Virus record (IMG/VR): IMGVR_UViG_2534681701_000013
Location: 1 to 49,536 of that record
Origin: a virus
Taxonomy: Duplodnaviria > Heunggongvirae > Uroviricota > Caudoviricetes
Length of the DNA stretch: 49,536 nt
Reading direction: 5' to 3' (one strand)
Made by a program: the position numbers and the translations under genes. The notes below the pieces were generated by a model that did not search any database, was not told the origin of the DNA, and was given only the letters and a program-made list of their open reading frames with translations. Position 1 is the stretch's first letter. Each line of letters opens with the position of its first letter. Shown here piece by piece: positions 3,322 through 49,536 of the stretch.

Positions 3322-4103
3322 GCTGCCACCTTCTGCTCAGTGGCTTTCTGTTTCAGGAATCCAAGAGCTTTCACTGCTTCGGCCTGTGTCAGTTCTGACG
3401 ATGCGCGAATGTCGCGGCGAAATATCTGGGAACAGAGCGGCAATAAGTCGTCATCCCATGTTTTATCCAAGGCGATCAGCAGAGTGTTAATCTCCTGCAT
3501 GGTTTCATCGTTAACCGGAGTGATGTCGCGTTCCGGCTGACGTTCTGTAGTGTATGCGGTATTTTCGACAATGCGCTCGGCTTCATCCTTGTCATAGATA
3601 CCAGCAAATCCGAAGGCGAGACGGGCACACTGAATCATGGCTTTATGCCGTAACATCCGTTTGGGATGCGACTGCCACGGGCCGGTGATTTCTCTGCCTT
3701 CGCGGGTTTTGAATGGTTCGCGTCGGCATTCATCCATCCACTCGGTAACGCAGATCGGATGATTACGGTCCTTGCGGTAAATCCGGCATGTACAGGATTC
3801 ATTGTCCTGCTCAAAGTCCATGCCATCAAACTGCTGGTTTTCATTGATGATGCGGGACCATCCATCAACGCCCACCACCGGAACGATGCCGTTCTGCTTA
3901 TCAGGGAAGGCGTAAATTTCTTTCGTCCACGGATTAAGGCCGTACTGGTTGGCGACGATCAACAATGCGATGAACTGCGCATCGCTGGCATCGCCTTTAA
4001 ATGCTGTCTGGCGAAGAGTGGTGATCAGTTCCTGTGGGTCGACAGAATCCATGCCGACACGTTCAGCCAGCTTCCCTGCCAGCGTTGCGAGTGCTGTACT
4101 CAT
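3318..4103 (-). CDS. bet: Single-strand annealing protein Bet (Red-beta, RecT family)
   Basis: 261-aa translation matches lambda Bet; 4-bp overlap with exo as in lambda. Confidence 0.95.
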
Positions 4104-43580: not shown

Positions 43581-46500
43581 GTGAATATGGCAGTAAAGAT
43601 TTCAGGTGTACTGAAAGACGGCACAGGAAAACCGGTACAGAACTGCACAATCCAGCTGAAAGCAAAACGTAACAGCACCACGGTGGTGGTGAACACGCTG
43701 GCCTCAGAAAATTCGGATGAAGCCGGGCGTTACAGCATGGACGTTGAGTACGGTCAGTACAGCGTTATTCTGTTGGTGGAAGGATTCCCGCCGTCACATG
43801 CCGGGACCATCACCGTGTATGAAGATTCCCGACCCGGTACGCTGAATGATTTTCTCGGTGCCATGACGGAGGATGATGCCCGTCCGGAGGCTCTGCGCCG
43901 TTTTGAACTGATGGTGGAAGAGGTGGCGCGTAACGCGTCCGCGGTGGCACAGAACACGGCAGCCGCGAAGAAGTCAGCCAGTGATGCCGGCACATCTGCC
44001 CGTGAGGCGGCAACCCATGCGACTGATGCTGCAGGCTCAGCGCGTGCAGCCAGCACGTCAGCCGGACAGGCCGCGACTTCGGCTCAGGAGGCGTCTTCCA
44101 GCGCAGGAACGGCATCAACAAAGGCCACTGAAGCATCAAAAAGTGCTGCCGCTGCAGAGTCCTCAAAAAGCGCGGCGGCCACCAGTGCCGGTGCGGCGAA
44201 AACGTCAGAAACGAATGCTGCAGCGTCACAAAAATCAGCAGCCACTTCTGCATCCACTGCGACGACGAAAGCGTCAGAAGCCGCCACTTCAGCCAGAGAT
44301 GCGGCGGCCTCCAAAGAGGCGGCAAAATCATCAGAAACGAACGCCTCCACAAGCGCCAGCAGTGCAGCCTCCTCGGCAACGGCGGCAGGAAATTCCGTGA
44401 AGGCGGCAAAAACGTCCGAGACGAATGCCAGGTCTTCTGAAACGGCAGCGGAACAGAGCGCCTCAGCTGCGGCAGACTCTGAGACAGCAGCTGCATCATC
44501 GGCCCGTGAGGCGTCCATTAAGGCAGAGGAGGCAGCAGTCAGTGCCACCGCCGCCGGAAAATCGGCAGAAAGCGCCGCATCATCCGCTTCAACAGCCACA
44601 ACGAAGGCTGGCGAAGCCACTGAACAGGCCACTGCAGCAGCGAGGGCTGCTTCCGCAGCGAAGACATCCGAAACGAACGCGAAAGCGTCGGAAACCAGCG
44701 CAGAATCCTCAAAAACGGCTGCCGCATCGTCCGCCAGTTCGGCGGCGTCATCGGCATCATCTGCGTCTGCTTCAAAAGATGAGGCGACCAGACAGGCGTC
44801 AGCAGCGAAGGGCAGCGCCACGACGGCATCCACGAAGGCGACAGAGGCAGCTGGTAGTGCGACAGCGGCAGCACAGAGCAAAAGTACGGCAGAATCCGCA
44901 GCAACGCGCGCTGAGACAGCGGCAAAACGTGCAGAGGATATTGCATCCGCCGTGGCGCTTGAGGATGCGAGCACGACGAAAAAGGGGGTAGTACAGCTCA
45001 GCAGTGCGACCAACAGCACGTCTGAAACGCTGGCGGCAACGCCAAAGGCAGTAAAAGCAGCCTATGACAATGCAGAGAAACGTCTGCAGAAAGACCAGAA
45101 CGGTGCTGATATTCCCGACAAGGACCGCTTCCTGAGTAACATTAATGTTTACAGCAAAGGTGAAGTGGATCAGAAAAAGGGGATGCGATACGTTGTGGTA
45201 AATGCCCCGGCGGGTGTCCAGGAAGGTAAATATTATCCGTTAGTGATAAAAAGGAATGACAGCCATCGGGCATCCCGCGTTGTCATTTCAACGCCAAGTC
45301 GCTCAGCTAATCACAGAATGAATAATTGTGAGTTTAATGGTTTTGTTTGCGCAGGCGGCTGGACGGACCGGGGTAGCTATGCCTGTGGTATGTTCTGGGC
45401 TTATTCATCATCGGAACGCGCTATTCATTCCATTCTGATGAGTAATAAAGGCGATACCGTAGACAGCGTATTCTATATAGAAGGTGGGGCATTTCCCGTA
45501 GAGGTCTTTTTAGAAGAAGGTCTCTCCGTTACTGCACCTGCTTCTGATTATATTGTTGCTGAAACGACTTATAAATTTGGCGCAACTGATCCTTATTCTG
45601 AATCAGTTGCGGTAAATTTAATTTTAGATTTTAAACAAGGTAATGGATTTTATAGTTCGTATCCTGTTTTGAGTAAGTCAGACATTAGCGGGAATAAGAT
45701 TTACGCTAATGATGAAGTTATTGTCCGTAGTCAGAACGCGTTAAGGATGATTGCAGGTGATTACGGTGTCATATGGCGAAATGATGGAGCAAATACTTAC
45801 TTGCTCATGACTGATAAAGGCGACCAGTACGGTGGCTGGAACGGTCTTCGACCATTTGCAGTAAATAACGCAACAGGTGAAGTGACGATCAATACACCAC
45901 TTAATTCTCCTAAGGGGATTAAGGGAAATTCTGATACAGCTACGAAACTTCAGACAGCAATAAAAATATCTGGTGTTTCGTTTGATGGTTCTACTGATAT
46001 CACTTTAACCGCTGCGCATGTTGCTGCTTTTGCCAGAAGAGCAACGGATACGTATGCCGATGCGGATGGGGGCGTTCCCTGGAATGCCGAATCAGGCGCT
46101 TACAATGTCACTCGCTCTGGCGACAGCTATATTCTGGTTAACTTCTATACCGGAGTCGGAAGTTGCCGGACCTTGCAGATGAAGGCGCATTACAGAAATG
46201 GTGGTCTGTTCTACCGTTCTTCAAGAGACGGTTATGGTTTTGAGGATGACTGGGCAGAAGTTTATACCTCGAAAAATCTTCCACCAGAAAGCTACCCAGT
46301 CGGCGCACCAATCCCGTGGCCATCAGATACCGTTCCGTCTGGTTATGCCCTGATGCAGGGGCAGACTTTTGACAAATCTGCTTACCCGAAACTTGCAGCT
46401 GCTTATCCGTCAGGCGTGATCCCTGATATGCGTGGCTGGATGATTAAGGGCAAGCCCGCCAGTGATCGAGCCGTATTGTCTCAGGAACAGGACGGCATTA

Positions 46501-46934
46501 AATCACACACCCACAGCGCCAGCGTATCCAGTACGGATTTGGGGACGAAAACCACATCGTCGTTTGATTACGGCACTAAATCCACGAATAACACTGGTGC
46601 GCATACCCATAGTGTTAGCGGTACGGCTGCTTCAGCCGGTGCACATACCCATTCGATGACATTTGTTTCAGGTGGTTCCAGTGGTGCTCCGGGAAGTGGA
46701 TCACCTGATTATTCTAAATACAGTGTTAACACTTCTTCTGCAGGCGCTCATACGCACTCTGTATCGGGTACTGCTGCAAGCGCAGGTGCACACGCGCATA
46801 CTGTCGGTATTGGTGCTCATACGCACTCCGTTGCGATTGGTTCACATGGACACACCATCACCGTTAACGCTGCTGGTAACGCGGAAAACACCGTCAAAAA
46901 CATCGCATTTAACTATATTGTGAGGCTTGCATAA
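43581..46934 (+). CDS. stf: Side tail fibre Stf (1117 aa), mosaic
   Basis: N-terminus [28 protein letters not shown] and C-terminal His-rich GAHTHS repeats ending ...[22 protein letters not shown] match lambda Stf; long Ala/Ser/Thr-rich region and a non-lambda central block. Confidence 0.9.
43950..45000 (+). repeat. Low-complexity Ala/Ser/Thr-rich coding repeats within stf
   Basis: Reiterated SAAxxAAxxSETNA-like units; responsible for long artefactual ORFs in other frames on both strands. Confidence 0.8.
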
Positions 46935-47518
46935 TGGCATTCAGAATGAGTGAACAACCACGGGCCATAAAAATTTATAATCTGCTGGCCGGAACTAATG
47001 AATTTATTGGTGAAGGTGATGCATATATTCCGCCTCATACAGGTCTGCCAGCAAACAGTACCGATATTGCACCGCCAGATATTCCGGCTGGCTTCGTGGC
47101 TGTTTTCAACAGTGATGAGTCATCGTGGCATCTCGTTGAAGATCATCGGGGTAAAACGGTTTATGACGTGGCTTCCGGCGACGCGTTATTTATTTCTGAA
47201 CTCGGTCCGTTACCGGAAAATGTTACCTGGTTATCGCCGGAAGGGGAGTTTCAGAAGTGGAACGGCACAGCCTGGGTGAAGGATACGGAAGCAGAAAAAC
47301 TGTTCCGGATCCGGGAGGCGGAAGAAACAAAAAACAACCTGATGCAGGTAGCCAGTGAGCATATTGCGCCGCTTCAGGATGCTGCAGATCTGGAAATTGC
47401 AACGGAGGAAGAAATCTCGTTGCTGGAAGCATGGAAAAAGTATCGGGTATTGCTGAACCGTGTTGATACATCAACTGCACCTGATATTGAGTGGCCTACG
47501 AACCCTGTCAGGGAGTAA
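46934..47518 (+). CDS. tfa: Tail fibre assembly chaperone Tfa
   Basis: 194-aa translation [24 protein letters not shown]... matches lambda Tfa. Confidence 0.95.
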
Positions 47519-47567
47519 TCATTGGGATTATGCCGCAGCACGTCTTAAGCAAGAACGTGCTGCGGTT
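47362..47567 (+). repeat. Direct repeat copy 1 (tfa 3' end plus downstream hairpin)
   Basis: About 206 bp nearly identical to 48411-48617. Confidence 0.85.
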
Positions 47568-47572
47568 GGATG

Positions 47573-48238
47573 CTATTTTTTCCCTGAAGCGGAAAACATT
47601 ACTACAGTACCTTGAACCTTGGTTTTAACATTCTCGAAATGCTCTGAGAGTATATGTGTTAAGCCTTCTTCGGAATCTTTTGTGTTTGAAAAGATGCCTT
47701 TCTGATTGTAAATGCGCATCAGTTTTTGACCGAAGCTATTGTGCACAACTCCATCGCCAAGAATTGTGGCTCCGTATAGAGTTCCATCGTCAGTTAAGGC
47801 CTGCGCCGCATTGCGTATTACACAGCTTTTTGTAGATATATTTCCAGGCAGGCAGTGAAGAAGGTAAAACATGGAAATGGAATCAAATTGACCATGTAAC
47901 GCCGCGGGATAAGGTTCAAAAACATCATGGCTAATTTTATGTTTAATTTTTGATTCCCCAGCCCTTGTAGATGCCGCGTTCAGGCTAGCTTCGTTCAAAT
48001 CCATTAAAGATATCAGACTACTCTCAGGTACGTGAGTAAGGTAAAACCCAGTTCCAACGCCAATATCCAGATGGTTGTTACCTAAATGTTCCAGAAAGTG
48101 TGGAAGAAGGTGTTCCTTTGTAGGACATCCCCATGCAAGCCGATTTGATACTCCCAAAACCCACCAGTCATAAAGCTTTAGGGTAAGTGGTGTGTAAATT
48201 TTAGCCCCATCATCTGTGTTTTTTTTCATTAGTTTCAC
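47573..48238 (-). CDS. ybcY: Class I SAM-dependent methyltransferase (DLP12 YbcY-like)
   Basis: 221 aa; glycine-rich SAM-binding motif LDIGVGTGFY; AT-rich; opposite orientation to the tail genes. Confidence 0.85.
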   Translation of the reverse strand: MKLMKKNTDDGAKIYTPLTLKLYDWWVLGVSNRLAWGCPTKEHLLPHFLEHLGNNHLDIGVGTGFYLTHVPESSLISLMDLNEASLNAASTRAGESKIKHKISHDVFEPYPAALHGQFDSISMFYLLHCLPGNISTKSCVIRNAAQALTDDGTLYGATILGDGVVHNSFGQKLMRIYNQKGIFSNTKDSEEGLTHILSEHFENVKTKVQGTVVMFSASGKK

Positions 48239-48297
48239 CGTGTTATAGTTTTATTTGTGAATTAAATCAATTATGGCGATGAATTACAAGGGGTTAA

Positions 48298-48567
48298 ATG
48301 CTGCCGCAGCATAGCGATATTGAAATAGCCTGGTATGCTTCGATACAGCAGGAGCCGAATGGCTGGAAGACCGTCACCACACAGTTCTATATCCAGGAAT
48401 TCAGTGAGTATATTGCGCCACTGCAGGATGCTGTAGATCTGGAAATCGCAACGGAGGAAGAAAGATCGTTGCTGGAGGCATGGAATAAATATCGGGTATT
48501 GTTGAATCGTGTTGATACATCAACTGCACCTGATATTGAGTGGCCTGCAAATCCTGTCAGGGAGTAA
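48298..48567 (+). pseudogene. Tail fibre assembly gene fragment (Tfa C-terminal remnant, tfaX-like)
   Basis: 89-aa ORF whose last 50 residues ([18 protein letters not shown]...[15 protein letters not shown]) duplicate the Tfa C-terminus; N-terminal part unrelated. Confidence 0.6.
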
Positions 48568-48617
48568 TCATTGGGATTATGCCGCAGACACGTCGTATGC
48601 AGGAACGTGCTGCGGTT
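48411..48617 (+). repeat. Direct repeat copy 2 (tfa 3' end plus hairpin)
   Basis: Near-identical to 47362-47567 with a few substitutions and a 1-bp indel in the hairpin. Confidence 0.85.
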
Positions 48618-48681
48618 AGTTTGTGAGCTTTCGATAGTGGTTGTTATTTTTGCCCTTATTTGTTCCGGAGGCCATGGTTCA

Positions 48682-48852
48682 ATGGTCCGTCTGCCCCCTG
48701 TGGTGATGTCAGCAAAATCAGCCACTGCGCGAACCACAATAGCCCGGGAAGATGCTGAAGATCACCTGGTAAAGCTGTCAGCGCAGAAACTGGAAGAACT
48801 GCTCGCATCAATGGTTAAGGATGAGGTTGATCGCAATGATGGGATTTATTGA
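48682..48852 (+). CDS. Hypothetical small protein (56 aa)
   Basis: ATG at 48682 with GGAG 11 nt upstream; track ORF 48571..48852 in the same frame; no family recognised. Confidence 0.3.
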   Translation: MVRLPPVVMSAKSATARTTIAREDAEDHLVKLSAQKLEELLASMVKDEVDRNDGIY

Positions 48853-48978
48853 CGTCAGCGAGAGCAGAAGGAAGAACTGAATAACCTGAATGATTTACGC
48901 TCAATCAGAGCGATGGCGATTAGCGGCAATCACGCTCGATAAAATTAACCCCGGTGATCATCCGGGGTTTTGCATTCA

Positions 48979-49536
48979 TTAAAACCGCATCAACCTTTCC
49001 ACCAATTGTTCTTTACGGGCAACGATCCACCCATGTTGCTCCAGATAAAATTTAAACCGTTCCAGAGTGCATACCATCGCATCGGCGGGGACTTTTTCTG
49101 TGAACTCGACCTGACCGTGTTTATCGAAGTGGATCAGTAATGCGCAGCCATTATTTGGGGCGGGGGAGTTTTGTGCTGCAGGAGGACGTTTGTGGAGTTC
49201 TTCTTCCATTGCGTTAAATTTTTCAATGTAAGCTTCTTTTAGTCTGGCTGCTTTTTTGCCAGTAAATCCCATTACGAGGAACATGAAGCCGTCTTTTGTG
49301 ATCAGGTAGCATCGTGATTCACGTTCTGCGCCGTTGCCAATTTCGACAGTCTGAACATCGGCCGAAAAGTTGGCTGATGTAAATTCGGGAGAGCAGTCGA
49401 GTGTGTCAATCTTAGCTAAAACGTGTTTATGTTGTTTATCGAAGTAGTCGGCAACAGCTTGAGAGGTGGTAACCAGGCGACCATCTTTGAAAAAGACTTT
49501 TGGTGACTCGTTAGAAAAAGTTATAGCTGTATTCAT
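48979..49536 (-). CDS. Rha-family phage regulatory protein
   Basis: 185 aa; N-terminal pRha-like region (LVTTSQAVADYFDKQHKHVLAKIDTL); ATG start lies on the last 3 bases of the window. Confidence 0.7.
   Translation of the reverse strand: MNTAITFSNESPKVFFKDGRLVTTSQAVADYFDKQHKHVLAKIDTLDCSPEFTSANFSADVQTVEIGNGAERESRCYLITKDGFMFLVMGFTGKKAARLKEAYIEKFNAMEEELHKRPPAAQNSPAPNNGCALLIHFDKHGQVEFTEKVPADAMVCTLERFKFYLEQHGWIVARKEQLVERLMRF

Follow-up and report, generated by a model that had tools for sequence, protein, structure and literature searches.

A methyltransferase gene between two tfa 3' ends of a lambda-like prophage: probable moron cargo at a tail-fibre recombination joint

How a single gene on the opposite strand comes to lie between two copies of the 3' end of a tail fibre assembly gene is the question raised by IMG/VR virus record IMGVR_UViG_2534681701_000013, a Caudoviricetes DNA of 49,536 nucleotides (positions 1 to 49,536, the whole of which is here termed the window). 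The gene is ybcY, which encodes an S-adenosylmethionine (SAM)-dependent methyltransferase, and the two flanking copies derive from tfa. A preliminary description saw in this arrangement a cargo cassette, inserted or exchanged by recombination at tfa genes, in which a methyltransferase without a visible restriction partner is flanked by nearly exact repeats. The analysis presented here indicates that the region probably forms the variable end, where cargo is carried, of the late operon in a lambda-like prophage inserted at ompW, that the repeats are likely to be the 3' ends of two different tfa alleles that were brought together, not a duplication made in place, and that the locus is, in our judgement, an ordinary moron at a known mosaic joint, in an arrangement that is already annotated in DLP12 of Escherichia coli K-12 and is not new. 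The features on which the argument turns are as follows:

46934-47518, plus strand: tfa, the intact tail fibre assembly gene, 194 residues, with a Caudo_TAP (PF02413) match
47355-47568: left direct repeat, comprising the last 164 bp of tfa, the stop codon and the hairpin
47532-47566, between the convergent tfa and ybcY: hairpin of the L type, with a 12-bp stem (fold about -24 kcal/mol, z = -4.0)
47573-48229, minus strand: ybcY, a class I SAM-dependent methyltransferase gene with a Methyltransf_12 match, its open reading frame (ORF) being open back to a GTG at 48238
48242-48270, minus strand: promoter-like site of ybcY, TTGATT-17-TATAAC, the single exact match in the window, where 0 are expected
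48298-48567, plus strand: tfaX-type ORF, 89 residues, of which residues 31-86 correspond to Caudo_TAP positions 75-130 only
48404-48618: right direct repeat, which closes the tfaX-type ORF and includes the second hairpin
48508-48522: putative homologous crossover, inside a 39-bp perfect run of the right repeat, the last tfaX-specific variant lying at 48507
48581-48617: hairpin of the R type, in which an extra A gives a bulge and weakens the fold

That the tfa 3' end and its hairpin occur twice, bracketing the minus-strand ybcY, was borne out by repeat search, alignment and shuffling. Within 44000-49536 the search returned one long direct-repeat family (47342-47538 and 48391-48587, 197 nt, 90%), which resumes after a one-base offset for a further 29 nt (47539-47567 and 48589-48617, 90%); no inverted repeats were found in the same interval. 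Weak similarity thus reaches upstream to 47342/48391, and the strong part starts at 47355/48404. In a global alignment of 47355-47568 with 48404-48618, 195 of 215 columns are identical (90.7%), the two longest stretches without a mismatch measuring 39 and 35 bp; the lone 1-nt indel is the additional A on the 5' side of the second hairpin stem. The coding part contains eight synonymous and five non-synonymous codon differences. The local alignment score of 179, set against 9.9 ± 1.3 and a maximum of 16 in 500 shuffles, places the similarity far beyond chance. The preliminary description had, however, put the repeat at about 206 bp and called the copies almost exact; the strong repeat measures about 214 bp and the copies are 91% identical.

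The differences between the copies are informative as to their origin, since the right repeat is itself a mosaic. In a multiple alignment of left, right and single copies it carries DLP12-type tfaX variants up to 48507; over 48349-48522 it is 98.9% identical to phages PhiR26_1 and Turner, and the resemblance of tfaX to tfa in PhiR26_1, Turner and 2G7b stops at 48522. To the right of the crossover the window is instead the same as the cassette-less prophages L006 and L008, sharing their TN-to-AN codon changes, the R hairpin with its extra A and a DUF4376 fragment. This pattern of variants marks the right repeat as a homologous recombinant, with a tfaX fragment of the DLP12 type as one parent and a resident full-length tfa as the other. 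The ORF that ends in the right copy is Tfa-like only in residues 31-86. A history of two steps can be proposed. In the older step the region upstream of ybcY would have been joined to mid-tfa, giving a DLP12-type block of tfa 3' end, hairpin, ybcY and tfaX, in which tfaX would be an internal tfa piece that ends at the equivalent of 48522. The later step is shown by the sequence pattern: in the ompW-prophage lineage, the crossover at 48508-48522 attached the resident tfa end, with its hairpin and downstream flank, to the tfaX piece, lengthening the repeat from about 130 to about 214 bp and thereby duplicating the hairpin. In this scheme ybcY would be a moron, a self-contained opposite-strand gene with its own AT-rich promoter region, acquired from enterobacterial chromosomes. 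The conserved coding part of the Tfa C-terminal domain, together with the hairpin, would serve as a patch of shared homology for crossovers among lambdoid phages and cryptic prophages, through which the ybcY block could reach phages with different tail-fibre modules.

The distribution of the block was examined at the site of integration and beyond it. The window is lambda-like prophage DNA in which J, lom, stf and tfa follow one another, and near-identical prophage copies adjoin a truncated ompW followed by yciE and trpA; 46000-49536 contains no transfer RNA (tRNA) genes. Among 5426 complete E. coli genomes the cargo (47569-48403, 835 bp, at 95% identity or more) is present in 3844 (71%), the whole segment 46900-49000 in 376, and a cassette-less ompW-site prophage, with tfa and hairpin joined directly to the downstream flank, in 20, the last being sought with synthetic junction queries in which the tfa end and hairpin were fused to 48618 onward. 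The ybcY block also occurs in the inducible phages PhiR26_1, PhiR29/30, 2G7b, ev243, Turner and Kati. Two prophages at the same ompW site, one with the cassette (L001) and one without (L006), share 99.16% identity across 5.57 kb of left-hand flank and 97.7% across 5.5 kb of right-hand flank. ybcY shows two hallmarks of a moron, as it is present or absent among collinear phages (L001 compared with L006, L007 and L008 at ompW) and has a base composition distinct from that of the neighbouring phage genes: guanine-plus-cytosine content is 41% in the ybcY cargo and 29% in the spacer at 48239-48297, compared with 48-52% in tfa and stf and 51% in the whole window.

Presence and absence at one site could also mean that the cassette-bearing state is ancestral, and that the cassette-less prophages are deletion products of a RecA- or Red-mediated crossover between the repeats. 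Such deletion, to which the preliminary description had pointed, is feasible, in that identical runs of 39 and 35 bp suffice for homologous recombination. Furthermore, the single-copy alleles are left-type at their 5' end and right-type at their 3' end, and L006 and L007 switch type at different places, 47459-47497 and 47504-47537, which are the two longest identical runs. An ancestral single resident tfa would, however, give the same hybrid pattern. At 47415, 47419 and 47449 L006 and L007 differ from the left copy and carry common tfa variants, whereas the left copies of the window and of L001 are private there; the 2.5 kb leading up to L001 position 6271 (window 47170) contain only 2 mismatches between L006 and L001, but the next, and last, 300 bp or so of tfa contain 10; and none of the 20 cassette-less alleles exceeds 97.5% identity to the predicted deletion product. 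The three cassette-less alleles fetched include at least two stf types, which weakly favours the cassette-less state as the older one. No recent deletion derivatives were found among these three, which are not simple hybrids of the two copies; we rejected the notion that they are recent deletion hybrids, as at diagnostic sites they look like independent or ancestral tfa alleles. Deletion as the source of the cassette-less state is therefore rather unlikely. Far less credible, and indeed hardly tenable, is the proposal that a mobile element inserted ybcY with target duplication, so that the second tfa 3' end arose on the spot as a tandem duplicate. Direct repeats around a compositionally distinct gene would be expected of such an event, but repeats of 214 bp that have diverged by 9% are unlike a target-site duplication and, as noted above, inverted repeats are lacking; no transposase or integrase family was detected in the five ORFs scanned in 46934-49536 (tfa, ybcY, tfaX, a 93-residue ORF and a Rha-family gene), and the right copy agrees at 98.9% with the tfaX of unrelated phages in its 5' part but is the resident allele in its 3' part, a mosaic that contradicts this proposal. 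On these grounds the block does not qualify as a transposon, an insertion sequence element or an integron cassette. A double-crossover patch from a DLP12-like donor was considered separately and set aside: its right junction fits, but the left can be placed no more closely than 47170-47415, and no sampled donor has the private variants of the left copy, so that only the right crossover is claimed.

If two tfa alleles met at a shared patch of homology, as we favour, the joints of the block in other viruses are of particular interest. The end of homology to the window was mapped in 80 IMG/VR contigs that encode the same YbcY; right boundaries were scorable in the 42 contigs in which they were not cut by the contig end. 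The boundaries were distributed as follows:

Left boundary inside the left repeat (recurrent at 47387, 47398 and 47421): 21 of 80
Left boundary at the tfa stop codon or hairpin start (47527, 47533): 17 of 80
Left boundary further left, in tfa or stf: 42 of 80
Right boundary near 48522: 12 of 42
Right boundary near 48545: 17 of 42
Right boundary near 48639, just past hairpin R: 8 of 42
Right boundary near 48915: 4 of 42
Right boundary ahead of the right repeat (48283): 1 of 42

The repeats or the hairpin hold 38 of the 80 left boundaries and the right repeat 29 of the 42 right boundaries; homology of the cassette block to other phages frequently begins in the 3' end of stf, at about 46737. What precedes the cassette in viral contigs and phages is of at least five kinds: stf-tfa of the lambda type; the Nesevirus 2G7b tail-fibre genes; a 914-residue fibre or tail spike with a Peptidase_S74 chaperone domain; opposed tfa genes beside a gp37-like fragment, which resemble an invertible segment; and an ipaH-like NEL effector beside a DUF4376 gene. 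A DNA invertase gene lies upstream of the ybcY block in phage Turner. The site also receives other cargo. Minus-strand genes downstream of the tfa and hairpin end include ea47 in lambda, a DinI-like gene and sitABCD, and ompT with a hydrolase gene or appY is found at the site elsewhere, in keeping with the variable end known from lambda-like prophages. Together, presence and absence, the recombinant right repeat and the breakpoints support its proposal that the cargo was inserted or exchanged by recombination at tfa genes.

Some of these loci deserve description in their own right. In one class of viral contigs, exemplified by IMG/VR contig 2872152978_000001 (L022, 3973-5616), the ipaH-like type III effector gene, encoding leucine-rich repeats and a NEL E3 ligase, abuts the hairpin and ybcY and is on the ybcY strand, with the DUF4376 gene beyond. 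In Turner (L004, 1243-3001) the left repeat is split: tfa homology ends at 47496 and resumes at the hairpin (47533), to continue through ybcY and tfaX, the intervening 1.75 kb containing small ORFs and the DNA invertase gene (L004 1354-1944, minus strand). An alpha/beta hydrolase of 464-494 residues is encoded after ybcY-tfaX in PhiR26_1, 2G7b and Turner, with ompT next (L002 4888-6372, L003 4383-5777). The PhiR26_1 hydrolase consists of Abhydrolase_1 and a TAP-like C-terminal domain, and in K-12 appY occupies the position of the hydrolase.

What, then, is the cargo? ybcY is intact and encodes 218 residues when counted from the ATG at 48229, which is probably the start given that homologues are mostly 217-225 residues long, and most commonly 218. 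Profile scores exceed the cut-offs (in brackets) for PF08242, 37.6 bits (30), PF13489, 28.8 (27), PF13649, 27.7 (27), and PF08241, 24.6 (21.2), which, with the 41% composition, upholds the earlier account of a minus-strand, AT-rich gene for a SAM-dependent methyltransferase. The glycine-rich loop of motif I (LDIGVGTG, residues 54-61) and D77 are among 57 alignment columns that are invariant in 30 homologues down to 56% identity. The AlphaFold2 model (predicted local distance difference test score 91.8) has a seven-stranded Rossmann-like fold. In a Foldseek comparison it came closest to a bacterial phosphatidylethanolamine N-methyltransferase (8ys9, E = 5e-12), with JHAMT, SgvM and phosphoethanolamine methyltransferases ranking next. 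The structural neighbours listed are all small-molecule, lipid or tRNA methyltransferases, with no DNA methyltransferase among them. YbcY shares the Rossmann-type seven-strand fold and an N-terminal helical cap with the small-molecule class I methyltransferases 8ys9, JHAMT (7ec0), MM_2633 (3dtn) and BelI (9fce), and is similar in size to its compact single-domain structure matches (about 207-213 residues).

The family matches of YbcY in Pfam and NCBIfam point to small-molecule families, although no NCBIfam family reaches its cut-off (CpaM and RquA score 17 bits against cut-offs of 175-180). Motif analysis, which the preliminary description had put forward as a means of telling a DNA from a small-molecule substrate, found no motif IV of the DNA methyltransferase kind: the sequence scan returned neither [DNS]PP[YFWH] nor PC[QH], and a lone ENV at residue 199 is unaccompanied by PCQ. 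At 218 residues the protein is too small to hold a target-recognition domain. Homologues that are 56-70% identical to YbcY are encoded by solitary genes of the chromosome, which in Salmonella, Enterobacter, Yersinia, Erwinia and Klebsiella occupy unrelated, non-phage contexts, and no conserved neighbours were found across these five genera. The phage gene looks like a captured chromosomal gene for a small-molecule methyltransferase. The modelled fold, the absent motifs and the solitary homologues together argue that YbcY is probably a SAM methyltransferase of the small-molecule type and not one that acts on DNA. The preliminary description saw no restriction partner, but the DNA methyltransferase that this implied is misleading; for a protein that is not DNA-methyltransferase-like and whose homologues are solitary, a missing partner is to be expected and has no significance. 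A functional link to alpha/beta hydrolases was also considered. Such genes lie near the homologues in phages, Enterobacter and Erwinia, but they belong to different families (the phage and Erwinia proteins, the two compared directly, are unrelated, BLASTP E = 0.82), and their proximity was taken as coincidence.

The tfa fragments and the hairpin were characterized in the same way. The intact Tfa matches Caudo_TAP at profile positions 1-130 of 131 (E = 3.8e-44) and is full length, including the fibre-specific N-terminal domain. The tfaX-type ORF, in contrast, does not match the full profile; it consists of 30 N-terminal residues unrelated to Tfa followed by the C-terminal third of Tfa, and the Prokaryotic Genome Annotation Pipeline (PGAP) calls it a partial pseudogene, 'incomplete; missing N-terminus'. 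Its C-terminus varies with the right-hand junction, giving forms of 82, 89 and 101 residues, several variants are frameshifted, and its predicted -10 hexamer overlaps the start codon. We consider tfaX probably a decaying, non-functional remnant. Wherever a sampled locus has a hairpin copy on the same side of ybcY, the L type accompanies the gene; the R type is linked to the DUF4376 flank in cassette-bearing and cassette-less prophages alike. A stem-loop after tfa is conserved in lambda (L016 3634-3669), Rac-type tfaR and an O104:H4 prophage, with the L015 copy at about 3883-3919; in the lambda/Rac variant CACGT/ACGTG has become AACGTT/AACGTT, a compensatory change from C-G to A-T. Hairpin L is identical at 32 of 32 positions to positions 149-180 of the Rfam family CssrB (RF02799), its 3'-terminal stem-loop, which suggests that tfa-strand transcripts may end at the hairpin. 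However, only these last 32 of the 180 positions of this Shigella small RNA (sRNA) family match (36 bits compared with 76), and the window therefore does not contain CssrB. On the ybcY strand the hairpin comes after the stop codon, and certain contexts (L022, for example) add a U-rich tail that the window lacks. We infer that the hairpin is a 3'-end or terminator element shared by two convergent genes. A second Rfam family overlaps the repeats:

47277-47475, plus strand: IS009 (RF02111) match within the tfa coding sequence, 223.6 bits against a gathering score of 117

The right copy matches IS009 at 48321-48524 with 112.8 bits, just under that score, and it may be conserved coding sequence, not an RNA gene, that the family captures.

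These observations bear on three further explanations. The repeated tfa 3' segment might be kept by selection, as a free-standing Tfa C-terminal domain protein or as an IS009 sRNA gene. tfaX does have a phage family of its own (phrog_2341, matched over its full length, E = 4e-61), most copies are intact, in clusters of 200-500 members, and an RNA polymerase binding site and a predicted tfaX promoter have been reported in K-12 (PMC3946193); the IS009 resemblance of both copies and the CssrB-like 3' end could be read in the same sense. It should be emphasized, however, that tfaX copies are all at least 95% identical, so that their intactness says little about selection, and that the IS009 model has few pairs and finds its better match inside the intact tfa frame. 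Given also the junction-dependent C-termini, the frameshifted forms, the pseudogene call and the overlap of the -10 hexamer with the start codon, selection on the segment appears improbable. It is equally doubtful that the block is a selected lysogenic-conversion module, present in about 70% of E. coli, whose YbcY is expressed from the prophage or the DLP12 remnant and methylates an envelope lipid or a xenobiotic, altering host physiology; were this so, the tfaX piece would be retained as homology that keeps the module transferable between phages. Finally, YbcY might be an orphan DNA methyltransferase, with an anti-restriction role in protecting the phage genome or an epigenetic role. A SAM-dependent methyltransferase carried by a phage invites this interpretation, which would account for the absent restriction partner, and the defence-system models did give one weak match, to PADLOC mad2 (E = 0.0033, 14 bits). 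The protein nevertheless lacks a DPPY-type or PCQ motif IV and has no target-recognition domain in its 218 residues, its family matches lie elsewhere, and its homologues stand alone in varied chromosomal contexts; the orphan reading is very unlikely, and the present analysis corrects it.

Several observations weigh against the explanation preferred here, in which a captured small-molecule methyltransferase gene lies between two recombined tfa alleles. At the putative older junction (48391-48404) similarity to tfa decays gradually, and the N-terminal 30 residues of tfaX have their match in a different phage family, phrog_3893. The private variants of the left copy (47415 T, 47419 G and 47449 A) occur in no sampled donor or cassette-less allele, so the actual donor is unsampled. 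The presence/absence polymorphism fits gain as well as loss. The intactness of most tfaX copies, mentioned above, sits uneasily with decay; the hairpin has no canonical U-tract on either strand in the window; and the predicted -10 element leaves a leader of only about 6 nt ahead of the ATG at 48229. Lastly, YbcY is only 10-21% identical to the solved methyltransferase structures to which it was compared, and their substrates are not transferable to it.

The flanks of the block add some detail. The neighbouring tail-fibre features are:

43581-46934, plus strand: stf, side tail fibre gene, 1117 residues, from the ORF list, named 'prophage tail fiber N-terminal domain-containing protein' by PGAP in L001
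48664-48942, plus strand: DUF4376/tail-fibre-like gene fragment with an internal stop, the PGAP annotation in L001 mapped by offset, with phrog_1141 and phrog_7703 matches

The part of stf that encodes the N-terminal half of the protein (window 44100-44950) contains several families of imperfect direct repeats of 22-29 nt, which encode an Ala/Ser/Thr-rich region. The DUF4376 fragment, between tfaX and the Rha-family gene, is a further relic of a tail-fibre module, and a minus-strand terminator-like hairpin at 48969-48947 follows the Rha-family gene. An E. coli protein, P0194, starts with an ORF over hairpin R and the flank (window 48571-48720; MGLCRRHVV...MSAKSA) and continues with another tfa C-terminal piece, which begins at EYIAPLQD, the same point as in tfaX; this fusion points to another round of tfa-fragment stacking in some genomes.

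The closest known counterpart of the locus is tfaD-ybcY-tfaX (b0561-b0563) in DLP12 of K-12 MG1655, which has the same three genes in the same order and orientation and is 96.6% identical to the window over 47080-48544. The promoter hexamers of ybcY are shared between K-12 and the window: a genomic SELEX (systematic evolution of ligands by exponential enrichment) study lists TTGATT/TATAAC for K-12 ybcY and flags the ybcY/tfaX spacer as bound by H-NS (PMC3946193). The published literature on ybcY and tfaX was otherwise found to consist of expression tables, promoter lists and the ompT context, with no functional study. ybcY is a pseudogene in K-12 but intact in the window. In K-12 and other DLP12-type elements the resemblance of tfaX to tfa stops at about 48522-48544, and appY or the hydrolase gene comes next, then ompT, whereas in the window the repeat spans the stop codon and hairpin and is followed by the DUF4376 fragment and the Rha-family gene.

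The locus also has to be placed among more general classes of phage module. The moron concept is reportedly due to Hendrix and co-workers, and mosaic tail-fibre/tfa modules, including invertible segments, are said to have been described in lambda, P2, Mu, P1 and e14 by Sandmeier and by Haggard-Ljungquist. As in those mosaic modules, the conserved C-terminal part of tfa forms the recombination joint in the window and tfa fragments are left over. Some ybcY-bearing contigs have an invertase or opposed tfa pairs, as invertible segments do. The window, however, differs from the invertible tail-fibre segments of the Gin/Cin/Pin type, in that it contains no invertase and its tfa copies are direct, not inverted; a search for the invertase crossover motif gave one near-match (47614-47625), inside ybcY and at chance frequency. 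'Exchangeable effector loci' have been described at the very end of lambda-like ompW prophages (PMC8112680). Like these loci and morons in general, ybcY is independent opposite-strand cargo that follows the tail-fibre genes, is present or absent, and is distinct in composition. The effector loci carry type III effectors, whereas the cargo of the window is a methyltransferase, although some viral contigs do have an ipaH-like NEL effector next to ybcY. Moron cargo at the late operon's end and mosaic joining within tfa genes are both established concepts, to which this locus adds little that is new. It does document the conserved tfa 3' end and hairpin as the joint by which a very common cargo block, found in 71% of complete E. 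coli genomes, is attached to different phages.

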